IMG/VR virus record: IMGVR_UViG_3300005329_000012
Location: 25,544 to 89,543 of that record
Direction: 5' to 3' (one strand)
Length of the DNA: 64,000 nucleotides
From: a virus
The notes beneath the pieces are model-generated. The model had not been told where the DNA came from. It ran no database searches and was given only the letters and a program-made list of their open reading frames with translations. Position 1 is the first letter of the stretch; each line of letters begins with the position of its first letter. A program made the translations under genes and the position numbers. This document shows, piece by piece, positions 29,357 through 57,550 of this stretch.

Positions 29357-31084
29357 TCAGCTCCCACAGACGCCCCCGACGCACGACTCCTCGTTCTCCT
29401 CGAACACGACGCCGGTCTGGCCGAGCGCGACCTCGTACGGCACGACGCTGAGCGGCTGGCCGCCGCGGGCGCCGTCCGGGTAGACGGTGATGCCGCGGAG
29501 CCTCGGCAGGTAGCGGATCAGCATGTCGCCGAAGTCGCGCTGGTCCCGCCCGTCCGTGAGCGGGTGCGGGAGGTTGATCGTGCTGCTGATGCCGTGGTCC
29601 ACGTACCGCTGGACCCACGCCTGGAACGCCACGCGCCGCTCGACGTCGAGCGAGAGCGAGTAGGCGTCCTCGATGTCCGCCGGGTCTCCCCCGCGGGCGA
29701 CGTGCCGCTCGGCGGCCGGGTCGATGACGTACTGGAACTGCGTCACGTCGTTGCCGTCGGACTTCGCCGTCTTGTACCGGCGCTTGTAGGCGACGCAGAA
29801 CACCGGCTCGATGCCGGTCGTGGTCTCGGCGATGATGCCGATGGTGCCGGTCGGCGCGATCGCGCGCGTCTTCACCGGGACGGTCAGGCCGTGCTCGCCC
29901 GCGTACTCGCGCGCGTAGAGGTCGGCCTCCTCGTAGACCTCCAGCCACTCGGCCAGCTCGCCGTCCGGGCCGTAGGGCTTCCCGCGCATGACGAGCCACT
30001 CGGCGACGCCCATGAGGCCGAGGCCGAGGCGCCGGTTCTTCGAGCGGACCGCGTGGACCTCCTCGTACGGCAGGTGCGAGTACACCGTGCCCGCCAGGAG
30101 GAACAGCGTCCCGAGGCGGACGGCCTCGCGCATCTCGTCCTTGTCGCCGATGCGGCTCAGGTTGATGCTCCCGAGGTTGCAGATGTCGTCGCCGTCGGCC
30201 GACGTGACCTCCGTGCAGGCGTTCCGCAGGGTCTCGCCCGCGTTGCCGCCCGTGTCGACCGAGAAGCCGGGCTCGGCGGTCGTGAGCATGCGGTCGAGCG
30301 TGCCCCAGTAGACGGCCTGCGCCAGCTTGTGCCGGATGTGGTCCTCGTTGCCGAACGCCTCGAAGAACTCGTCGTCGAGGATGACGGACACGTTCGTCAT
30401 GTCCATCGGGGCGCCGAAGTTGAAGTCGCGCTCCTTGATCGAGCGCACGTCCTCGCTCCAGTCCTTGACGCGGATGAAGTCCATCACGTCGTCGTGCTTC
30501 CAGCTGAGCCCGGCCCAGATCGCCGAGCGGCGCGAGCCGCCCTGCATGACGTTCCGGCCGATCTCGTTGACGATCTTCATGAGCGCGATCGGGCCGCTCG
30601 CGAGGCCGCCGGTCTTGTGGATCGGCTGGCCGCTCGCCCGGACGTCGCTGTAGTCGACGCCGATCCCGGCGCCGGTCATCAGGGCCATCCCCGCCTTCCG
30701 CATCAGGTCGCTCCAGCCCTCGCGCGAGTCGTCCGCGCGCAGCAGGAGGCAGTTCTGCGTCTGGTGCAGGGGTCGGCCGGAGGCGTAGAGGTAGCGCCCT
30801 CCCGGGAGGAACTTGCGCTGCTCGACCAGGCGCAGGACGCCGTCGAACTCCTCGTCGCCGGGGCTGTAGCCGAGCGCGCCCATCACGTTCGAGACGACCC
30901 TGTGGGCCGTCTCCCGCCACGTCTCCACCGCGCCCGCCTCGTCCCTCATGGCGTACTTGGCCCGGAACTGCGTCTCCGCCCAGGCCGAAAACTGGTCGGG
31001 GTCGGGGGCTTCGGTGTCTGTGTCGGTCGCGTCGTGGAGGTGGCTCGTTTCCTTTGTTTCTGTCAAAACTTCCGCTGCGGACAT
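29357..31084 (-). CDS. nrdJ: Class II (adenosylcobalamin-dependent) ribonucleotide reductase
   Basis: FLPGGRYL, NC, LRNACTE, CNLGSINL, RRLGLG, AIAPTGT, GIEP, ISSTIN, C-terminal CVGGVC; no NrdB partner in window. Confidence 0.88.
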   Translation of the reverse strand: MSAAEVLTETKETSHLHDATDTDTEAPDPDQFSAWAETQFRAKYAMRDEAGAVETWRETAHRVVSNVMGALGYSPGDEEFDGVLRLVEQRKFLPGGRYLYASGRPLHQTQNCLLLRADDSREGWSDLMRKAGMALMTGAGIGVDYSDVRASGQPIHKTGGLASGPIALMKIVNEIGRNVMQGGSRRSAIWAGLSWKHDDVMDFIRVKDWSEDVRSIKERDFNFGAPMDMTNVSVILDDEFFEAFGNEDHIRHKLAQAVYWGTLDRMLTTAEPGFSVDTGGNAGETLRNACTEVTSADGDDICNLGSINLSRIGDKDEMREAVRLGTLFLLAGTVYSHLPYEEVHAVRSKNRRLGLGLMGVAEWLVMRGKPYGPDGELAEWLEVYEEADLYAREYAGEHGLTVPVKTRAIAPTGTIGIIAETTTGIEPVFCVAYKRRYKTAKSDGNDVTQFQYVIDPAAERHVARGGDPADIEDAYSLSLDVERRVAFQAWVQRYVDHGISSTINLPHPLTDGRDQRDFGDMLIRYLPRLRGITVYPDGARGGQPLSVVPYEVALGQTGVVFEENEESCVGGVCGS

Positions 31085-49639: not shown

Positions 49640-49885
49640 TCGCAACAGATAGCTCAGGGTGCCTCCGTCCCACAGCAGGGATGTGAAGGTCGTCAGTGGC
49701 CTCGGCCACCAGGAAAGGCGACCGGATCGGATGGCCCGCCAGTCAGATCGGCGGGGCAGAGAGAGCCTCCTGAGGGATTCGTCCCTCAGGGAAACACGGG
49801 GCCGCTGCATGCCCCGTGACCGAGTCGGCGCAGGATTCGACGCCTGCCGTCACGCTGGAAGGCGCGGCCCGGAATGCAGCTGCGA

Positions 49886-49959
49886 CGCGGGGTAGAGCAG
49901 TTTGGTAGCTCGCCAGGCTCATAACCTGGAGGTCGTGGGTTCAAATCCCACTCCCGCTA
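49886..49959 (+). tRNA. tRNA-fMet(CAT)
   Basis: Cloverleaf, C1:U72 mismatch, loop CTCATAA. Confidence 0.92.
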
Positions 49960-50154
49960 CTTGAGGTACAAGTTCGAGCCCGCCACGGCGGGCAGCCCCG
50001 CAAGGGGCGATTGAGCCCGGGCCGAGCCCTCCCGGGACCTAAAAAGGGGCTTCTGGCTTCGCTGTTACCAGGAACCGAACAGCGTGGTGGAGGCTGGCGT
50101 ACCGCGTCAGGCCCTCGCACGGGGAGGCACGGCGTCAACTGGTGCCTCAGAATA

Positions 50155-50229
50155 CAGGGTGTAGCTCAGTCTGGTGAGAGTACTCCGTTGGGGACGGAGA
50201 GGTCGTGGGTTCAAGTCCCACCACCCTGA
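50155..50229 (+). tRNA. tRNA-Pro(GGG)
   Basis: Cloverleaf, loop TTGGGGA. Confidence 0.92.
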
Positions 50230-50279
50230 TGGCGACCGCGGCCGGTAACGGCGGGGACGGCTCGGAGAGACGAGCGCAT

Positions 50280-50353
50280 CAGCGTGTAGCTCAGTCTGGC
50301 AGAGTCGCCGCTTCGGGAGCGGATGGTCGCAGGTTCGAATCCTGCCACGCTGA
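50280..50353 (+). tRNA. tRNA-Pro(CGG)
   Basis: Cloverleaf, loop TTCGGGA. Confidence 0.9.
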
Positions 50354-50412
50354 CTGGCCCCTTCGGGGGCCGTGTCCGACCGGGCGCGGGAACACCTTCC
50401 CCGGTCGGCCCT

Positions 50413-50786
50413 GGGCCAGCCATGGCTTTCGACAGTCGAGCATGGACGGCGAGATCGCAGCGGGTCGCGGCCTACCGCGCCTAGCCCCGGATCGGGCAAA
50501 CCCAAATGCGAACGACAACGATCGCATCGAGGTCGCGGACACGTTCCCGGCAGAGTGGCTCGCCGCTCCCGCCGAGTCGGCCCTCGTCGCTGCCTGACGA
50601 GCACCAACAGGTAGACCGCACCCGCCGGTAGCGGGTGACGCCCCGGAGAGACGGGTCGCCGCAGGGGTGAACGGCGCTAAACCGATGGACCCCCGAGCCC
50701 GGGGTACGCTGGCCGGGCACACAAGCTGCTAGAAGGTCTTGACGGAACCACCCGGCTGGACGCGGGTTCGACTCCCGCCTGGTCCA
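50413..50786 (+). ncRNA. ssrA: tmRNA; tag reading frame 50508-50597
   Basis: Acceptor GGGCCAG/CTGGTCC-A with G3:U70, GGCTTTCGAC 5' motif, T-arm GCGGG-TTCGACT-CCCGC, tag ANDN...ALVAA-TGA. Confidence 0.93.
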
Positions 50787-50927
50787 CTCCACTGCACCAA
50801 GCGTTGCCCCGACGGCGACGGGTCCCGGCTCTGCGGAGCACACTGCAACCGGGCCGCGGACGTGCTCACCGCGCGGTCGCTGATGAACGACGGAGGCCCG
50901 ACCAGTTCGGGGCTGAGGTCTCCACCT

Positions 50928-51001
50928 ATGCCGCTAGCTCAATCAGGCAGAGCAGGTGTCTCCAAAGCACAAGGTTCCGGGTTCGATTCCTGGGCGGCAT
51001 G
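50928..51001 (+). tRNA. tRNA-Trp(CCA)
   Basis: Cloverleaf, loop CTCCAAA. Confidence 0.88.
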
Positions 51002-51015
51002 CCTCGCACCACCCT

Positions 51016-51088
51016 GTCCGGTTCGTCTAGTGGACCAGGATGCCGCCCTCTCACGGCGGAGACACGGGATCGTAGCCCGTACTGGACA
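51016..51088 (+). tRNA. tRNA-Glu(CTC)
   Basis: Cloverleaf, loop CTCTCAC; atypical T-loop ATCGTAG. Confidence 0.85.
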
Positions 51089-51125
51089 TAGGGCACGCTC
51101 GGCCGCGAGGCCGCCGTGCCCGCAT

Positions 51126-51198
51126 TGGCGGGTAGCTCAGTCGGTAGAGCGGCTCCCTGTTAAGGAGAAGGTCGTGGGATCGAAGCCCACCCTGCCAG
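51126..51198 (+). tRNA. tRNA-Asn(GTT)
   Basis: Cloverleaf, loop CTGTTAA. Confidence 0.9.
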
Positions 51199-51246
51199 CT
51201 CACAGCGCCCTAGCAGGGGGCGCGGACACAAGTACCCTGCGCGCGT

Positions 51247-51319
51247 AGCCCGTTCGACTAGCGGACAGGTCGCCGCTCTTTCAAGGCGGTAGGCGCGGGT
51301 TCGAATCCCGCACGGGCCA
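51247..51319 (+). tRNA. tRNA-Glu(TTC)
   Basis: Cloverleaf, loop CTTTCAA; 1:72 mismatch. Confidence 0.85.
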
Positions 51320-51352
51320 TTGCCAGGCAGCACAGCAAGACCGCAGCGCCAC

Positions 51353-51423
51353 TGGGAGGTCGTCTAATGGTAGGACGCCGGGTTCTGGCCCCGGAAACTG
51401 AGGTTCGACCCCTTGCCACCCAG
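51353..51423 (+). tRNA. tRNA-Gln(CTG)
   Basis: Cloverleaf, loop TTCTGGC. Confidence 0.85.
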
Positions 51424-51435
51424 CTCGCAACACCC

Positions 51436-51508
51436 GCCTCGCTAGCTCAGTCGGTAGAGCAGGGGACTTTTAATCCCAAGGTCCTAGGTTCGAACCCTAG
51501 GCGGGGCA
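51436..51508 (+). tRNA. tRNA-Lys(TTT)
   Basis: Cloverleaf, loop CTTTTAA. Confidence 0.92.
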
Positions 51509-51660
51509 CTGCAACAACTTCTCGACGTGGCGTCCCGCGAGGGGCGCTGGCGAAGCCGTCCGACGCATCCCTGGATCGCGACCAGGCTCTCAGTGGCGGG
51601 GGAACGCGGGTTCGATTCCCGCAACGCTCCTAACCGGGCGGGCCTGGCACGTCGGGGCGC

Positions 51661-51733
51661 GGACCGCTAGCTCAGTCGGCAGAGCAGGGGCCTCTTAAGC
51701 CCAAGGTCCAGGGTTCGATCCCCTGGCGGTCCA
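51661..51733 (+). tRNA. tRNA-Lys(CTT)
   Basis: Cloverleaf, loop CTCTTAA. Confidence 0.92.
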
Positions 51734-51821
51734 CTCAGGGAGGCGCGACGGAGTTCGGCCTGACGGCCGCCGTTGGGAAGCCCCGGCCCCGGTGCCGGGT
51801 GGCCTACCCCTCCCTGTACAC

Positions 51822-51903
51822 GCTCCTGTGGCGGAACAGGTAGACGCGCTGGTTTCAGGAACCAGTGTCTTCGGACGTGGGGGTTCGGATCCCTCCGGGA
51901 GCA
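51822..51903 (+). tRNA. tRNA-Leu(CAG)
   Basis: Type II cloverleaf, loop TTCAGGA. Confidence 0.9.
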
Positions 51904-51974
51904 CTTGACAACCCCGGCTTCGGCCGGAGACGCGCGGGGCGGCGTGGGCCTTCGGGCCGGGACAGCCCCAACAT

Positions 51975-52058
51975 GCGCTCGTGGTGGAATCGGTAGACAC
52001 GTCGGCTTGAGGAGCCGGTGGCCGCGAGGTCGTGGGGGTTCAACTCCCTCCGGGCGCA
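51975..52058 (+). tRNA. tRNA-Leu(GAG)
   Basis: Type II cloverleaf, loop TTGAGGA. Confidence 0.9.
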
Positions 52059-52157
52059 CTAGGCTGGCCGTCAGACGGTGAGAACGCGGCCCGCTCAGGG
52101 AAGGCACCTACCCGGGCCGACTGCTCACCTCTTTGCCCGGACGTAGCCTTCCCGCAC

Positions 52158-52230
52158 GGCGACGTAACTCAGTCGGTAGAGTGTCTGTCTGAAAAGCAGA
52201 AGGTCGGCGGTTCAAGTCCGCCCGTCGCCA
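52158..52230 (+). tRNA. tRNA-Phe(GAA)
   Basis: Cloverleaf, loop CTGAAAA. Confidence 0.92.
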
Positions 52231-52372
52231 TCGAGAGAGGGAAACATCCCGGAAGCGGTAGTGTGTTGAGGCCGGGGCCGAACCGCCTGACGCTGGCGGG
52301 GGAATGGGAGCACCCGGGCGCACCCGGAGTCCCGGTTCGAGTCCGGGCCGCGAGACCCTCCCTCGGAACCGC

Positions 52373-52454
52373 GCCCGCCTGGCGGAACAGGTAGACGCCC
52401 CGGCTTCAAACACCGGCGCCACCAGGCGTTCGGGTTCGAGTCCCGAGGCGGGCA
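52373..52454 (+). tRNA. tRNA-Leu(CAA)
   Basis: Type II cloverleaf, loop TTCAAAC. Confidence 0.88.
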
Positions 52455-52469
52455 TAGCAAGACCAGCAT

Positions 52470-52542
52470 GGAGGACGTAGCTCAGTGGTAGAGTCGCGGG
52501 TTGTGGTCCCGTCGGTCGTGGGTTCGATCCCCACCGTCCTCC
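52470..52542 (+). tRNA. tRNA-His(GTG)
   Basis: G-1:C73, loop TTGTGGT. Confidence 0.9.
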
Positions 52543-52640
52543 CTCCCTGTGGCCCCGCATTGCCAAAGCAGAGGAACCACCGGCCCGTTACGCGGGGAAG
52601 CACCGGGCGCCGTCGGCCTGTGAACAGAACGGACGGACAC

Positions 52641-52714
52641 GTGGGAGTAGCTCAGTTCGGTAGAGTGTCGGCTTGCCAAGTCGAAGGTCGCGGGTTCGAT
52701 CCCCGTCTCCCACA
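52641..52714 (+). tRNA. tRNA-Gly(GCC)
   Basis: Cloverleaf, loop TTGCCAA. Confidence 0.9.
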
Positions 52715-52755
52715 CTGCCGCCCAGGCCCGGAAGGGAGCAAGCGGCCACAGCAGT
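52715..52755 (+). ncRNA. SRP RNA helix-8 (Ffh-binding) hairpin
   Basis: CCGCC-CAGG-CCC-GGAA-GGG-AGCA-AGCGG: conserved symmetric loop and GGAA tetraloop of SRP helix 8. Confidence 0.7.
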
Positions 52756-52847
52756 CCGCCGGGGGCACGCCGAGGCGCATGCGCCGAAGCAGCCCTAAGA
52801 CAGAGCCGCGTTCCGGTCGCGGCCTAATCCCTAAGCGGGCTGCACAC

Positions 52848-52921
52848 GCCACCGTAGCTCAGTCGGCAAGAGCGCCCGCCTTGTAAGCGGGAGGTCCGGG
52901 GCTCGACCCCCCGCGGTGGCT
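52848..52921 (+). tRNA. tRNA-Thr(TGT)
   Basis: Cloverleaf, loop CTTGTAA. Confidence 0.88.
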
Positions 52922-52930
52922 CTCGTACAC

Positions 52931-53003
52931 GCCCCGCTAGCTCAGCGGAAAGAGCGACGGGTTCCTAACCCGCAGGTCGCAGGTTCGATCCCTGCGCGGG
53001 GCA
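52931..53003 (+). tRNA. tRNA-Arg(CCT)
   Basis: Cloverleaf, loop TTCCTAA. Confidence 0.9.
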
Positions 53004-53138
53004 TCCACCGAGGCTGGGCGCGCGAGGTCCGTCGCCGGACGCGTCCGCTGCCGTAGTACCCTCTGACGACACGGGAGAGCGGCAGGCGCCTTCGGGCGCG
53101 TGAAAGGCTTAGCGGCCCGGTAGCCAACTCGGTGATTT

Positions 53139-53212
53139 GCGCTGGTAGCTCAGTCGGATAGAGCCACGGGCTTCTAACCCGTCGGTCGGGGGTTCGAGTC
53201 CCTCTCGGCGCA
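53139..53212 (+). tRNA. tRNA-Arg(TCT)
   Basis: Cloverleaf, loop CTTCTAA. Confidence 0.9.
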
Positions 53213-53311
53213 TCGTGGGTCCTCCAGGAGGGGTGACAGCGAGGACATCTGGCCGGGCATTCGTGGAGCCGCCCCTGCCCGGGAACAACTGGCGGCCTAG
53301 ACCCTCCACCC

Positions 53312-53385
53312 GCACGCATAGCTCAGTCTGGCAGAGCGACGCGCTTCCAACGCGTAGGTCAGGGGTTCGAGGCCCCTTGCGTGCT
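53312..53385 (+). tRNA. tRNA-Gly(TCC)
   Basis: Cloverleaf, loop CTTCCAA. Confidence 0.9.
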
Positions 53386-53392
53386 TCATCGC

Positions 53393-53466
53393 TGCTCCGT
53401 AGCTCAGTCAGGCAGAGCGTCCGGCTCATAACCGGCAGGTCGAGGGTTCGAGTCCCTCCGGAGCGA
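53393..53466 (+). tRNA. tRNA-Met(CAT), elongator (Ile2 not excluded)
   Basis: Cloverleaf, loop CTCATAA. Confidence 0.85.
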
Positions 53467-53669
53467 CTGGGGACAGCGGGGCGGACCGCCCGCCGGGAAC
53501 ACACTTCGCCGTGCACGGCGCAAGGCACGTCCTGGCAGCAGTGGCCACCGGACGGAATCCGATCGACCGCGCCCTACCTAACTGCTGGCCACCGGCCGAT
53601 GGTCATTCCGCCGTTCGACTCGGCGAGCCGGGGAGGGTGGCTCCCTCCAGCCAGGCCAGCAGGTCTTTC

Positions 53670-53743
53670 GCCCGTGTAGCTCAGTCAGGCAGAGCACTTC
53701 CCTCGTAAGGAAGGGGTCCGGGGTTCAACTCCCCGCGCGGGCT
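53670..53743 (+). tRNA. tRNA-Thr(CGT)
   Basis: Cloverleaf, loop CTCGTAA. Confidence 0.9.
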
Positions 53744-53909
53744 CTTGGGTGCCGGTTCGTCGATCGTGGGCCGGTCCCCAGCAGCTTCATGAAGAACCGC
53801 GCGATGCATCGCGCATAGGAGGGCCGGGGTGCGAATCCCTGTAGAGAAAACGGTTGCCTCCGAACCGGGAGCGGTTGACGGGCCAGATCACCCGCGGCGC
53901 TCCCGACCC

Positions 53910-53984
53910 GCCGACGTAGCTCAGTCAGGCCAGAGCACTTCCTCGGTAAGGAAGGGGTCCAGGGTTCAAGTCCCTGCGTCGGCT
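53910..53984 (+). tRNA. tRNA-Thr(GGT)
   Basis: Cloverleaf, loop TCGGTAA (C33). Confidence 0.88.
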
Positions 53985-53990
53985 TCGCAC

Positions 53991-54063
53991 GGCCCGTTAG
54001 CTCAGTGGACAGAGTGTCCGGCTTCGAACCGGATGGTCGGGGGTTCGACTCCCTCACGGGCCG
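53991..54063 (+). tRNA. tRNA-Arg(TCG)
   Basis: Cloverleaf, loop CTTCGAA. Confidence 0.9.
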
Positions 54064-54170
54064 CTTCCGTGGAACGTCGGGTAGGTCGCCACTGGCGGCC
54101 AGGCCCGGCGCGATCGGTTCACGCGGGAGGCAGCGCGTGAGAGGGGTGGAAGTCCCCACTGCCACAACAC

Positions 54171-54245
54171 GGACCGTTAGCTCAGCATGGTCAGAGTAGC
54201 GCCCTGTCGAGGCGATGGTCACGGGTTCGAATCCCGTACGGTCCG
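54171..54245 (+). tRNA. tRNA-Asp(GTC)
   Basis: Cloverleaf, loop CTGTCGA, G73. Confidence 0.9.
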
Positions 54246-54342
54246 CTCCGTTTCAGAACGCACGAAAACGGGTAGAAACAACCCACGGGGCCGTCTTCGG
54301 GCGCCCCGTCCAAACCAAGCACCAGGGGGCAAGACAGCAACG

Positions 54343-55044
54343 ATGGCAGACCAGAAGTACTACGACTCGACGGACACCGAGCGGACCAACCCGCTCAGCC
54401 GTCAGCAGGCGGCGCAGGTCCAGATGGGCGGACACGCGGTGGTCGACGAAGACGGCCAGCCCGCGACACTCTACGCGTACGACGTGCTCCACGGCCGCGA
54501 GGCCGTGACCGGCGAGGTATCGGCGGACCAGCTCGACCGCGAGGCCCTCAAGGCCAACGGCGGCGAGGCCCGCGACGCCTGGCAGGAGCAGGCCGACGAG
54601 AACGCCGCCGACGGCGGCGACGAGCCCGAGCGGCTCACGATCCCGCAGCTCAAGGAGCAGATCGCGGACCTCAGCGACGAGGACCTCGACAGCTACGCGA
54701 ACGACGACCGCAAGGGCGCCCAGGAGGCCGCGAAGGCCGAGCAGGCGCGCCGCGCGGAGGCCGCCGAGGCCGACGAGAAGAACGAGGACGAGAACAGCAC
54801 GGCCAGCGGCGCCGAGGGCGTCGAGGCCGCCGTCCAGGGCGTCCTGGAGTCGCAGCAGGCCGCCAGCAACCGGCCGCCCGACTCCGACGAGGCGCAGGCG
54901 CTTCTCGCGCAGGCCACCGTCGGCGGCGACAGCGGCGACGCGACCGTGGAGGGCGTCGTCGAGGACGACGGCTCCCCGGGCGACAAGGAGTTCGACCCGG
55001 ACGCCGCGGCGGACGAGAAGGACTCCGAGGACGAGGACAAGTAG
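54343..55044 (+). CDS. Highly acidic hypothetical protein inside the tRNA array
   Basis: ATG 54343 (MADQKYYDST...), D/E-rich, normal codon bias, followed by hairpin 55050-55071. Confidence 0.8.
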   Translation: MADQKYYDSTDTERTNPLSRQQAAQVQMGGHAVVDEDGQPATLYAYDVLHGREAVTGEVSADQLDREALKANGGEARDAWQEQADENAADGGDEPERLTIPQLKEQIADLSDEDLDSYANDDRKGAQEAAKAEQARRAEAAEADEKNEDENSTASGAEGVEAAVQGVLESQQAASNRPPDSDEAQALLAQATVGGDSGDATVEGVVEDDGSPGDKEFDPDAAADEKDSEDEDK

Positions 55045-55075
55045 CACACGAGGCCCCCGCGAGGGGGCCTCACCA

Positions 55076-55148
55076 GGGCGGCTAGCTCAGTAGGGAGAGC
55101 GCCGGTTTCACACGCCGTAGGTCGCAGGTTCGAGCCCTGCGCCGCCCA
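55076..55148 (+). tRNA. tRNA-Val(CAC)
   Basis: Cloverleaf, loop TTCACAC. Confidence 0.9.
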
Positions 55149-55439
55149 TCGACCGTAGGACCGTTGGCCTAAAAGCAGCCACCGGCTAAGGAGTGGCGAG
55201 GCAGGGATCGGGGACCGGAACCAGAAGGGTCGATCCGATCTTCAAAGATTCACCGGGCCTGGTAAGGGAGAAGCCCGGGCATCTGCCGCGAAGGCCCGAC
55301 GCAAGGAGAAGCGTCGGGGAGAAGCCCGGAACGGAAGCGAGCCGCATACCCTGCGCGGCGAGCCGACGAGGACTGACCGTCCTACCGGGATGCCGACTTC
55401 GCACGTGAGCCTTTGGCGTAGCAGCACACCTTCGGTCGA
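55149..55439 (+). ncRNA. Candidate novel ncRNA mimicking the 23S rRNA GTPase-associated centre (H43-H44, uL11 site) with ~220-nt insertion
   Basis: Terminal stem TCGACCGTAGG/CCTTCGGTCGA; GGACCGTTGGCCTAAAAGCAGCCACCGGCTAAGGAGTG ... GCGTAGCAGCACAC aligns with 23S nt ~1055-1104. Confidence 0.7.
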
Positions 55440-55445
55440 ACCCAT

Positions 55446-55680
55446 TCGAAGGGGAAGACACGCGCGGCGCGGTGCTTCGAGACGCGTCGAGGAAAGTCAG
55501 GCCACCTGCCGCCCGGGGACGGGACGGCAAACGCGCGGCGACCGAGCGGGAGGGCTCCGGCCCGTCTCACCGCCAGGACCGGCGGGGTGCAACCCCAAGC
55601 GCGGCGCCCAGACCGGGCGTCCAGGTAGGGGGCACAGATGGATGCGTGTCCTAGACAGAAGCCTGCTTACGAACCTTCGA
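55446..55680 (+). ncRNA. rnpB: Minimal RNase P RNA
   Basis: P1 TCGAAGG/CCTTCGA, P2 GACACGC/GCGTGTC, CR-I GAGGAAAGTCAGG, CR-IV AGATGGATG, CR-V ACAGAAGCCTGCTTA; P4 pairing has a compensatory change. Confidence 0.88.
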
Positions 55681-55729
55681 GACACGGTCCCTAACCGCTT
55701 AGGCTAACAACCGCGGGGCGGGGCCTCCA

Positions 55730-55803
55730 GACCGCGTAGCTCAGTCGGGACGAGCGCCACGTTGACATCGTGGAGGTCGGTGGTTCGAGCCCACCCGTGG
55801 TCA
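55730..55803 (+). tRNA. tRNA-Val(GAC)
   Basis: Cloverleaf, loop TTGACAT. Confidence 0.9.
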
Positions 55804-55809
55804 CTGCAA

Positions 55810-55882
55810 GTCCCAGTAGCTCAGAGGACAGAGTGCAGCCCTGCGAAGGCTGAGGTCGGCGGTTCGATCCCGCCCTGGGACG
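55810..55882 (+). tRNA. tRNA-Arg(GCG)
   Basis: Cloverleaf, loop CTGCGAA. Confidence 0.9.
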
Positions 55883-55897
55883 CTACACTTTGGGGCA

Positions 55898-56100
55898 TGG
55901 CGAAGAAGATCAACGCGAAGAAGGAGAAGGCCCTCCGCAACGAGGCGTACGCGAAGCAGTTCCGCAAGCGGACGCCCGGCCGGAAGGACCGGGACAAGAA
56001 GCGGCTCGGCGGCCCCTGGGGCAACTGGTGCCGCATCAAGGGGCACCCGCAGAACTGCGGTTGCGTGTACGGCGTAGGGACTGGTAGCTCAGCTGGTTAG
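55898..56100 (+). CDS. Small basic protein with C-x4-H-x3-C-x-C tail
   Basis: TACACT -10 just upstream of ATG; MAKKINAKKEKALRNEAYAKQFRKR...; 3' end overlaps tRNA-Ile. Confidence 0.6.
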
Positions 56101-56151
56101 AGTGGCGCTCTGATAAGGCGCAGGTCGGTGGTTCGAGTCCACCCCAGTCCA
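56078..56151 (+). tRNA. tRNA-Ile(GAT)
   Basis: Cloverleaf, loop CTGATAA. Confidence 0.92.
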
Positions 56152-56252
56152 TCGGAAGGTAGCTCAGACCCCATGCGAGCGCAATGGCGTGTCGCGGAGA
56201 GCTGGCCCTAACGGGTCGAGACGGCGCGGTGGGAGGCGCCCCTTCCGTACAG

Positions 56253-56323
56253 GGCGACGTGGCCGAGCGGTTAGGCGGTTGGCTGCAACCCTTCACACAC
56301 AGGTTCGAGTCCTGTCGTCGCCT
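56253..56323 (+). tRNA. tRNA-Cys(GCA)
   Basis: Cloverleaf, loop CTGCAAC, U73; two U-U pairs in anticodon stem. Confidence 0.8.
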
Positions 56324-56434
56324 CTAGGTGGCCCCTACGCGGCCACCAGTGCCCCACTCTGGCCCACCGAGGGCCGGGGCGGGGAGTTCCATTGCTTCGC
56401 GAGGTCGGCGCCAGAGGCGCCCACTCTCGTGCTC

Positions 56435-56507
56435 GGGCCGGTAGCTCAGTCGGGAGAGCGACGCACTCGCACTGCGTAGGTCAAGGGTTCGACTCCCTTC
56501 CGGTCCA
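56435..56507 (+). tRNA. tRNA-Ala(CGC)
   Basis: G3:U70, loop CTCGCAC. Confidence 0.92.
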
Positions 56508-56599
56508 CTGCTCCGTCGGGGTACCCGGGTGGTTCCCGGGACTGTCTGAGGAGCGCCCTCTCGGCAGAGGCCGCGTAACCGCGCGGTGTCGGGAGGCCC

Positions 56600-56672
56600 G
56601 GGGCGTTAGCTCAGCTGGGAGAGCATTTGGCTGGCAGCCAAAAGGTCGAGGGTTCAAGTCCCTCACGCTCCA
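56600..56672 (+). tRNA. tRNA-Ala(GGC)
   Basis: G3:U70, loop CTGGCAG. Confidence 0.92.
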
Positions 56673-56818
56673 TGGGTGATCCGGGTTCGAGTCCCGGGCG
56701 CACCTGCCCCGATAGCAGGCCCCGCGAAGGGCCGCAAGCCATGGCTGGCGGGCAAACGTCGGCCCGGTTCGCGCCGGTCCCGGCGGGGAGCGTTGGTGCA
56801 ACGGCAGCACACCCTCAC
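56673..56818 (+). ncRNA. Circularly permuted tRNA-like RNA (T-arm first, D-arm last, no anticodon loop)
   Basis: T-arm 56681-97, 3' acceptor strand 56698-704, then 5' acceptor strand 56787-93 and D-arm GTGC-AACGGCA-GCAC 56796-810. Confidence 0.6.
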
Positions 56819-56906
56819 GGAAGGGCTAGCCGACAGTCGGCGACGGCACCCGGTTGCTAACCGGACGAGGCGCAAGCCCTTGAGGGATCATCCCCCTCCC
56901 CTTCCG
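56819..56906 (+). tRNA. tRNA-Ser(GCT), atypical
   Basis: Type II cloverleaf, loop TTGCTAA, T-loop ATCATCC. Confidence 0.78.
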
Positions 56907-56957
56907 CTCGTTTCGACCGCCCCTACCCCGGGTACAATCACGGGGGAGGAGGCAAAC

Positions 56958-57128
56958 ATGGGAGTGATCGGAGTCATCCTGCGCGTGGTCGCGTTCGTGC
57001 TGTTCGTCGTGGCGGGGGTCAACGAGACCCTGCTCAACCAGCCGCCCGCCGACCTCGTCGCATTCGGCCTGGCCGCCTGGGTCCTCGCCGTCCTGCTGGA
57101 CGGCGTCGACGTCGGCCGCCTCGGCTGA
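56958..57128 (+). CDS. Small two-TM membrane protein
   Basis: TACAAT -10 at 56933, GGAGGAGG SD, two hydrophobic helices. Confidence 0.75.
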   Translation: MGVIGVILRVVAFVLFVVAGVNETLLNQPPADLVAFGLAAWVLAVLLDGVDVGRLG

Positions 57129-57159
57129 GACACGGACTGGCCGCCCCTAGCGGCCACAC

Positions 57160-57248
57160 GGAAGGGCAAGCCGACGGTTGGCTGACGGCACCGGATTCGA
57201 AACCCGGCGAGGCGAGAGCCCTTGTGAGTTCGATCCTCACTCCTTCCG
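57160..57248 (+). tRNA. tRNA-Ser(CGA)
   Basis: Type II cloverleaf, loop TTCGAAA. Confidence 0.82.
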
Positions 57249-57253
57249 CTCAC

Positions 57254-57342
57254 GGAGAGGCAACCCGACGGCTGGCGACGGGACCCGCTTGGAAAGCGGA
57301 CGAGCCTTTGCGGCCTTGCGGGATCGTTCCCCGCCTTCTCCG
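57254..57342 (+). tRNA. tRNA-Ser(GGA)
   Basis: Type II cloverleaf, loop TTGGAAA. Confidence 0.82.
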
Positions 57343-57356
57343 CTCGCGTAAGGGGT

Positions 57357-57470
57357 GTGAGGATCATCCCGACGCAGAAGGGTCCCGACCGGGACCTGGC
57401 AATCCTCCTCTGGACCACGGTCGCCGTCCTGGCGACGGTGATCTTCGTCGCGTACCACGCATTCCACTGA
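57357..57470 (+). CDS. 37-aa single-TM peptide
   Basis: GTG after CGTAAGGGGT motif; MRIIPTQKGPDRDLAILLWTTVAVLATVIFVAYHAFH; stop abuts tRNA-Tyr. Confidence 0.5.
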   Translation: MRIIPTQKGPDRDLAILLWTTVAVLATVIFVAYHAFH

Positions 57471-57550
57471 GCCGACGCTGGGGCTGGGACCCCGACCTGG
57501 CTGTAAACCAGGCGTCTCGTACTAGGCAGGTTCGATTCCTGACGGCGGCA
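57471..57550 (+). tRNA. tRNA-Tyr(GTA), divergent
   Basis: CCTGG-CTGTAAA-CCAGG anticodon arm, T-arm, acceptor with one mismatch. Confidence 0.75.

Follow-up and report, generated by a model that had tools for sequence, protein, structure and literature searches.

Arrays of dozens of co-oriented tRNA genes that also include a transfer-messenger RNA (tmRNA) are known from cluster C mycobacteriophages, such as Bxz1 and Myrna, and from huge phages. The huge-phage paper of Al-Shayeb et al. 2020 (PMC7162821) mentioned tmRNA, and the terms RNase P, SRP (signal recognition particle) and 4.5S never occur in its text. We examined an array of similar layout in a 64,000-nucleotide stretch of DNA (the window), which constitutes bases 25544-89543 of the single 89,543-bp contig of IMG/VR record IMGVR_UViG_3300005329_000012. 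Its tRNA-Met had 93% identity to that of Mycobacterium phage Myrna, but this array differed from the known tRNA and tmRNA arrays in adding RNase P, SRP and rRNA-domain mimics. A full-text literature search, with most subscription journals outside its scope, returned no description of RNase P RNA, SRP RNA stubs or a mimic of the 23S rRNA GTPase-associated center (GAC) encoded by phages, in agreement with an earlier note on this DNA that knew of no described system combining all of these elements. Overall, the analysis suggested that the array is probably a translation-support operon of a large, uncultured soil phage, in which one long + strand unit carrying 37 CCA-less tRNAs would release the RNAs embedded in it.

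The contig had a G+C content of ~69% (68 to 73% all along) and was attributed to a phage on account of its genes for a DnaE-type polymerase, an SNF2 helicase and a RecE-like exonuclease and for a protein weakly resembling a terminase. Completeness of the record was ~56% by CheckV, and the DnaE proteins of the nearest isolate phages exhibited only ~30% identity. Near-identical DNA contigs, with only a few strain variants, were present in soil and rhizosphere metagenomes from four studies. Helicase homologues were detected at 73% (P0002) and 70% (P0003) identity in the closest relatives and at 47% on the contig of L007, and comparisons of the array rested on L007, on L008 and on the short L006. 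L007, a syntenic relative, shared with the window the tmRNA and the RNase P RNA, two tRNA-like RNAs, one of them permuted, and a single spacer with several hairpins. Megablast and blastn searches of isolate phages with the array and the RNase P region returned either nothing or tRNA-sized matches only, and single-protein queries for related loci gave no matches.

A co-oriented tRNA array with a tmRNA

ARAGORN detected 36 tRNAs and a tmRNA between 49886 and 57550, every one on the + strand, while Rfam placed 32 tRNAs over its gathering score and the class II tRNAs under it. Addition of a tRNA-Ser(CGA) raised the number to 37, with all 20 amino acids represented. This gene, which occupies the position where L006 and L008 have tRNA-Ser(cga) genes with 82% identity to it, escaped ARAGORN owing to an A.C mismatch within its anticodon stem. 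The ~8-kb, co-oriented and CCA-less array of the earlier note was thus confirmed with 37 rather than 36 tRNAs. A tRNA-Ala(CGC)-like gene was aberrant and scored just 23.5 bits with the tRNA-Sec model of Rfam. A second, permuted tmRNA call by ARAGORN at 50697-51339 was taken as false, five ordinary tRNAs lying inside its span.

None of 38 acceptor ends was followed by an encoded CCA. A U was present at position +1 or +2 past the discriminator in 36 of the 38, against a T background of 14% in the region, and about ten 5' leaders ended in CAC or ACAC; both features are possible recognition signatures for RNase Z and RNase P. In Bacillus subtilis, a U directly past the discriminator favors endonucleolytic 3' processing of CCA-less precursors by RNase Z. 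Neither a terminator-like site on the + strand nor a sigma-70-like promoter was found inside the array when both were looked for, a pattern that fits a single long transcript without proving one.

The tmRNA call of the earlier note was upheld by ARAGORN, by a homologue in L007 and by a conserved tag frame. The 5' strand of the acceptor stem, GGGCCAG, pairs with the 3' strand CUGGUCC, and the T-arm is formed by GGUUCGACUCC. The tag comprises 29 codons and ends in ALVAA before the stop codon; that of L007 has ~30 amino acids in the same frame and ends in SLVTV before the stop, so that the frame is conserved though codons differ. The two tmRNAs had 80% identity over aligned columns. With Rfam model RF00023, the window tmRNA scored 24 bits, matching in its 3' tRNA-like part only and falling under the 47-bit gathering score, and the L007 tmRNA passed this cut-off with 56.7 bits.

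A reduced RNase P RNA

Downstream of the middle of the array, an RNA of 241 nt aligned end to end with the bacterial RNase P RNA model RF00010 (E value of 3e-13), as expected from the minimal RNase P RNA proposed previously. Helices P1, P2, P3, P5 and P15 and the P4 pseudoknot were retained, the conserved regions CR-I (GAGGAAAGUC), J18/2 (AGAUGGAUG) and CR-V (ACAGAAGCCUGCUUA) were intact, and CR-IV was also kept. Pairing of CR-I GAGGAAAGUC with CR-V ACAGAAnCCnGCUUA forms the P4 pseudoknot and included a compensatory CAGG/CCUG change; these two strands were invariant over nine mini RNase P RNAs. The catalytic-domain helices were accompanied by J18/2 in the form AGAUGAAUG. The specificity domain (P7 to P14, with CR-II and CR-III) was absent, at least 106 model positions being deleted and replaced by an unaligned stub of ~63 nt. 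The RNA is therefore like the bacterial type A form (RF00010; Escherichia coli M1 RNA) in P1 to P5, P15, the P4 pseudoknot and CR-I, CR-IV and CR-V but unlike it in its length, in having ~63 nt in place of P7 to P14, in having no P18 and in being phage encoded within a tRNA array. In keeping the catalytic domain with a scant specificity domain, it resembles archaeal type T RNase P RNA (PMC3579882).

The syntenic place in L007 was occupied by a homologue of 242 nt (49.4 bits). Comparison of the two revealed compensatory changes in P1 and P2, the latter being GACACGC/GCGUGUC in the window and GACAAGC/GCUUGUC in L007. IMG/VR was then scanned with a pattern satisfiable by short forms only, and five contigs of 42 to 51% G+C were obtained. 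All five RNAs, of 207 to 227 nt, were confirmed by Rfam (28 to 118.5 bits), and tRNA genes were called near the RNA in four of these contigs. In prokaryote genomes, the same pattern matched between tRNA-Pro and tRNA-Arg in a 32-tRNA array of Achromobacter anxifer LMG 26857, a cultured bacterium; the array presumably belongs to a prophage or to a mobile element of another type. A clade-specific 20-mer matched no IMG/VR contig except that of L007, and blastn of isolate phages with a mini RNase P RNA detected host-contaminated records only. The RNA of the window is identified as a genuine RNase P RNA in reduced form, and one of a type that recurs, because of the L007 homologue with its compensatory changes and because further mini forms were found. 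As its core is intact and the isolated C-domain of E. coli RNase P RNA is catalytic (PMC5839562), this RNA may itself be catalytic.

Reduced RNase P RNA-like sequences were also observed at L064:4040-4296 (-) and L065:7565-7797 (+), on contigs of Spirochaetes and Rhizobiales metagenome-assembled genomes with no adjoining tRNAs; either these genes belong to the organisms themselves or phage DNA may have been mis-binned. Near the mini RNase P RNA of L003, Rfam detected a 100-nt tRNA (2339-2438; 60 bits) that ARAGORN did not call and that may be intron containing or otherwise interrupted.

A free-standing mimic of the 23S rRNA GTPase-associated center

The two ends of a 292-nt element immediately upstream of the RNase P RNA together rebuild the uL11-binding domain of 23S rRNA (H43/H44). 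The closing stem joins 55150-55158 to 55431-55439 with 8 of 9 pairs and one U.U. The 5' half reads CGACCGUAG-GAC-CG-UUGGCCUAAAAGCAGCCA-CCGG-CUAAGGAGU and parallels H43 and the junction of 23S rRNA, for which the corresponding sequence in Achromobacter (L067) is GAGGUUGGCUUAGAAGCAGCCAUCCUUUAAAGAAAG; the 1060-1078 mismatch was retained and outer stem pairs were altered on both sides. H44 (GCGUAAUAGCUCAC) has its parallel in the 3' half, GCGUAGCAGCACAC. Similarity to rRNA at the level of the Rfam large-subunit (LSU) model was slight (8.9 bits, E value of 1.5), although located at the corresponding model region.

A search of IMG/VR with the motif TTGGCNTANAAGCAGCCA detected at least 117 stretches, and a GAC family was defined here from these matches. 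Its 5' part consists of the closing stem, G(G/A)N, H43 as UUGGCYUARAAGCAGCCA with paired flanks, and the junction YUAARGAGU; its 3' part consists of an insert stem and UUUGGCGUANNAGCACAC, followed at once by the closing stem's 3' strand. Among the matches listed, 51 unique members combined a 5' half with an insert of 58 to 382 nt and the 3' half UUUGGCGUAAUAGCACAC, and their closing stem always had the same register. The outer pair of H43 was paired in 98% of these members, against 43% in shuffled controls, with six pair types, and the insert stem was paired in 87 to 100% against 46 to 59%. Values for the closing stem (67 to 98% against 38 to 78%) were inflated, since members had been selected for at least five of eight closing pairs. 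A tRNA ended 11 to 18 nt before the core motif in 12 of the 51 members and started 9 to 20 nt past the 3' end in ~10 of them. None of the 80 loci examined, out of at least 117, lay within a 23S gene, and similarity to 23S rRNA never exceeded 62 nt.

In the window element, the 5' part carries flank pairs G-C, C-G and C-G, and the 3' part contains CCUUUGGCGUAGCAGCACAC followed by CUUCGGUCG, with the insert stem GGC/GCC; judged by its sequence, the element fits every feature of the family. A strain variant, G55421A, converts its H44 loop to the commoner family form GCGUAACAGC. With these motifs and the covariation, the 23S mimic recognized in the earlier note was established as a family member. 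The element shares with the E. coli GAC (positions 1051-1108, the uL11 and thiostrepton site) the 1060-1078 mismatch, the A1067 loop, the UAA junction and the H44 GCGUANNAGC loop with A1095, and its closing helix takes the place of H42. It differs in being free-standing and phage encoded and in the insert between rRNA positions 1090 and 1091, and the whole family has a fixed ACAC in place of the UCAC of rRNA (GCACAC, not GCUCAC). Leaders of r-protein mRNAs that mimic rRNA sites are similar in concept, but the GAC mimic is not located upstream of any r-protein gene. A sarcin-ricin-loop mimic was sought in the array and not found.

Cultured phages also carried the GAC core in unannotated gaps, namely, Pseudomonas phage pf16 (L229; KU873925.1, ~29402-29656), in which the gap lies between tRNA-Asn and tRNA-Pro; Xanthomonas phage XacN1 (L230), in which a 2'-5' RNA ligase gene is located immediately upstream of the core; and Cronobacter phage GAP32. 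An insert-free member, a bare ~58-mer with a 4-bp closing stem, was observed around position 2101 (-) of L172.

A stripped SRP RNA hairpin

The third element is a hairpin of 30 nt with the sequence GCCGC-CCAGG-CCC-GGAA-GGG-AGCAA-GCGGC. On positions 33-60 of the small SRP RNA model RF00169, each conserved unpaired base was matched and all stems were paired, which bears out the helix-8 hairpin claimed in the earlier note, and a discrete hairpin was formed in the minimum-free-energy fold. The bare motif has a chance expectation of 0.06 per window, a figure that leaves eight required pairs out of account. The stem closes after 5 bp, the score of 27.1 bits is below the gathering score of 40, and the E value was 0.028 in a 9.5-kb scan with all Rfam families. 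The hairpin is like domain IV of bacterial 4.5S RNA (ffs) in its symmetric CAGG/AGCA loop, 3-bp stem and GGAA tetraloop but unlike this RNA in being only 30 nt long, in having no asymmetric loop, helix 5 or distal end and in being situated behind a tRNA discriminator. The contig of another study spans 52630-52780 with zero differences.

The SRP motif CAGGNCCGGAAGGNAGCA was present at 43 IMG/VR loci. Some were full-length ffs genes beside tRNA-Ser that resembled host flanks, and ~11 were short hairpins on the tRNA strand within independent phage tRNA arrays. Some of these also retained the asymmetric loop, among them the stub of L092, where tRNA-Glu and tRNA-Arg are separated by a spacer of 73 nt; in another array (L101), the stub lay between tRNA-Gln and tRNA-Phe. 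The hairpin of the window was the most stripped of the phage-array stubs found. Three such contigs, G054, G055 and G063 (those of L069, L076 and L106), combined an SRP stub in a tRNA array with near full-size RNase P RNAs of 339 to 343 nt (247 to 262 bits); they comprise huge-phage contigs of 372 to 497 kb and one of 94 kb.

These sequence comparisons indicate that the RNase P, SRP and GAC phage RNAs are recurring phage families, usually located within tRNA clusters. Of 50 viral records with a GAC element, 4 also had an RNase P RNA; this RNA was likewise detected in 3 of 11 records with an SRP stub, in all three at near full size, and the GAC motif was detected in 1 of 16 records tested. These low counts indicated that the families are mixed and matched and that a phage with all of them is unusual.

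Other structured RNAs and spacers

A conserved tRNA-like RNA, with a T-loop motif outside every annotated tRNA, had 74% identity to L007 7486-7570; RNAalifold predicted 26 pairs, 5 of them compensatory. A second element is a candidate circularly permuted tRNA-like RNA, present as the earlier note had claimed, in which a T-arm and the 3' acceptor strand precede an 82-nt linker, the 5' acceptor strand and a D-like arm, and a terminal stem closes. Its counterpart, L007 8714-8821, has in common with it the T-arm, the D-like GUGYAASGGCAGCAC and a position beside tRNA-Ala genes. The terminal stem covaries fully (GGGUG/CACCC in the window, ACCGA/UCGGU in L007). Six of seven acceptor pairs form in the window and ~4 in L007, the 3' halves of the two were not aligned by MAFFT and RNAalifold, and ARAGORN made no call at this element. 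The order of parts is that of circularly permuted tRNA genes and two-piece tmRNA, but there is no anticodon loop, CCA or mRNA-like part, and the acceptor pairing in L007 is weak. A third element, the spacer between tRNA-Ile and tRNA-Cys, has the same architecture as a syntenic spacer of different sequence in L007.

About eight further spacers had been said to have pairing ends. An excess of about twofold over shuffled sequences was indeed detected, with at least four terminal pairs in 11 of 24 window spacers (6.4 expected) and in 12 of 21 spacers of L007 (5.0 expected). No clear excess was observed in L008 and four unrelated arrays, most unnamed spacers of the window were unconserved, and their folding exceeded that of shuffled sequences by a small margin (z of -1 to -2); the general claim is weak. 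The most strongly folded spacer (56325-56434; z = -4.7) forms three GC-rich hairpins between tRNA-Cys and tRNA-Ala and has no counterpart in L007, where the two genes are 3 nt apart.

Table 1. Features of the array and of one bacterial locus
Feature	Position	Strand	Evidence
tRNA array, co-oriented, 37 tRNA genes, 20 amino acids	49886-57550	+	ARAGORN, Rfam, acceptor ends
tmRNA, G3:U70 acceptor stem, 29-aa tag ANDNDRIEVADTFPAEWLAAPAESALVAA followed by stop	50413-50787	+	ARAGORN; L007 homologue
tRNA-Ala(CGC)-like, aberrant, 91 nt, G3:U70, extra arms	51541-51631	+	ARAGORN; fold
Conserved tRNA-like RNA: T-arm, long extra arm, noncanonical "anticodon" loop	52255-52351	+	L007 comparison
Mini SRP RNA hairpin, 30 nt, loop CAGG/AGCA and GGAA tetraloop	52717-52746	+	RF00169, 27.1 bits
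Gene for 233-aa very acidic (D/E-rich) protein, mid-array	54343-55044	+	GC3 profile, open reading frame (ORF)
Free-standing 23S H43/H44 (uL11 site) mimic, 292 nt, ~230-nt insert	55149-55440	+	Family motifs, covariation
Miniature RNase P RNA, 241 nt	55445-55685	+	RF00010, 46.4 bits, E 3e-13, model 1-367
63-aa basic (lysine/arginine-rich) ORF, CxxxxxxxxCxC tail	55897-56087	+	Translation
Ile-Cys spacer: terminal stem around three hairpins	56152-56252	+	L007 8439-8563
Candidate circularly permuted tRNA-like RNA	56673-56818	+	Sequence, fold, L007 counterpart
56-aa two-helix membrane-type ORF, strong Shine-Dalgarno GGAGGAGG	56958-57128	+	ORF scan, GC3 0.95
tRNA-Ser(CGA)	57160-57247	+	Rfam tRNA-Sec model, 29.6 bits; fold; relatives
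Possible 37-aa peptide ORF, perhaps coding	57357-57470	+	ORF scan
Mini RNase P RNA, Achromobacter anxifer LMG 26857, NZ_CAHLAR010000005.1	L066:6083-6296		Pattern scan

Predicted release and roles of the embedded RNAs

The comparisons show what these elements are and to which families they belong, together with their covariation, synteny and position beside tRNAs; co-transcription, processing and protein binding of the array RNAs are inferred. RNase P would cut every tRNA 5' end, an RNase Z-type enzyme would cut past each discriminator, where a U is nearly always next, and the host CCA-adding enzyme would complete the tRNAs; the same tRNA-end cuts would also free the RNAs between tRNAs. The anatomy of the array fits such release by tRNA processing. 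Elements start right behind tRNA discriminators, a point already made in the earlier note: the SRP hairpin begins 3 nt past that of tRNA-Gly, P1 of the GAC mimic begins 1 to 2 nt past that of tRNA-Val, and the RNase P RNA of L007 directly abuts tRNA-Ile. Four of these RNAs are trimmed versions of the catalytic or protein-binding cores of host ribonucleoproteins. Once free, the tmRNA would work with host SmpB, and the mini RNase P RNA would most likely assemble with host RnpA and provide more 5'-processing capacity for the phage pre-tRNA load. The SRP hairpin would bind Ffh, and the GAC mimic would bind uL11 or another reader of the H43/H44 site. The SRP stub and the GAC mimic, which present exactly those surfaces that Ffh and uL11 recognize, could act by substitution, titration or decoy alike. 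More tentatively, the arrays might constitute a modular toolbox of large phages in which mini ribonucleoprotein (RNP) cores, freed from between tRNAs by the processing of tRNA ends, capture RnpA, Ffh, uL11 and SmpB into phage-controlled mini-RNPs; this phage would then be a rare one with the full set in a single operon.

Several observations weigh against a translation-support operon. The RNase P RNA is missing the specificity domain, the part that reads the T/D-loop elbow of the tRNA, and its 46.4 bits are below the Rfam gathering score of 100 bits. The SRP hairpin is without the asymmetric loop and the helix 5/distal helix of the ~100-nt full form and, so stripped, may bind Ffh weakly or nonproductively. 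L007 has neither the SRP hairpin, which was sought there, nor a GAC mimic, the slot of which is occupied by tRNA-Ile(tat). RnpA, SmpB, uL11, the Ffh M domain and a CCA-adding enzyme are all unencoded in the 89.5-kb, ~56% complete record. In public sequencing runs, the phage was present as DNA contigs only and in no RNA run. The rarity of co-occurrence means that the three families need not act together. Finally, the 4 nt that separate the GAC mimic from the RNase P RNA include no punctuating tRNA, so either another nuclease acts there or the two RNAs stay joined.

If the SRP, GAC and tRNA-like RNAs act apart from such support, they could, as in the second option of the earlier note, be sponges for host defense or competitor toxins directed at these sites, or for small molecules such as thiopeptides, and so protect the genuine ribosome and SRP during infection, an explanation that we consider unlikely. 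Thiopeptides bind the uL11-GAC complex and their producers live in soil and rhizosphere, the same habitats that yielded this phage, and retention of the recognition cores alone, with functional extensions dropped, would be in keeping with a decoy. A toxin that ADP-ribosylates 23S rRNA reportedly targets helix 44 of the GAC. A toxin that ADP-ribosylates 23S rRNA and inhibits translation has been described (PMC8661411), and phage tRNAs have been proposed as a counter to tRNA-targeting defenses (PMC10264068). However, SRP RNA- or GAC-directed defense is known for no host of these phages, the GAC family is also present in aquatic T4-like and jumbo phages, and competing with ribosomes would demand a high copy number. 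The same restriction to binding cores could instead reflect dominant-negative action, in which the mimics titrate free Ffh, uL11 and perhaps RnpA and so dampen membrane-protein targeting or the uL11-dependent stringent response. The SRP stub is without the distal part of 4.5S RNA, which is needed for late targeting steps, and uL11 is required for RelA activation. This explanation appears quite improbable. All catalytic-core motifs of the mini RNase P RNA are preserved under selection, which favors activity over titration, and assembled ribosomes would not give up uL11 to free RNA.

There is very little likelihood that the elements have no independent function and are captured host fragments, attP-like remnants or chance matches, with spacers that insulate tRNA folding and guide processing. 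The weak SRP (E value of 0.028) and LSU (E value of 1.5) matches, the lack of conservation in most unnamed spacers, with 11 of 24 end-paired against 6.4 expected, and a documented phage attachment site inside ffs (PMC12540744) would be in keeping with it. Set against this are the recurrence of the three families in unrelated phages, with covariation and on the tRNA strand; an SRP piece that corresponds to the central apex, complete with a closing stem of its own, and not to a 3' gene fragment; the lack of any 23S gene around the 80 GAC loci examined; and the family's own fixed difference from rRNA. Absence of function is a reading that holds for the unnamed spacers only.

Should the RNAs of the proposed translation-support operon be produced and associate with the partners predicted for them, phages would steer three universal machines, for tRNA maturation, cotranslational targeting and the ribosomal GTPase center, by means of RNA mimics as well as proteins, a layer that would escape protein-centered annotation. 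The mini RNase P RNAs represent a natural experiment on what a minimal ribozyme needs, and in the free-standing GAC domain a classic site of antibiotic and factor binding occurs naturally off the ribosome; the cultured carriers pf16, XacN1 and GAP32 make direct tests possible.

Protein genes inside the array

The earlier description of the spacers as a library of structured RNAs was overstated: several are protein genes, and most of the unnamed ones exhibit neither conservation nor a clearly nonrandom fold. The Pfam and PHROG databases contained no family for the 233-aa acidic protein or for the small ORFs of the array. The acidic protein had a homologue, P0061, at 77% identity and a weak homologue in the L008 array. 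In the 63-aa ORF, third codon positions were, by inspection, nearly all G or C, as in genuine genes of this DNA, and the stop codon shares bases with the start of tRNA-Ile. Judged by these coding features, small protein genes account for at least three of the spacers, and hence the array is not a pure RNA operon.

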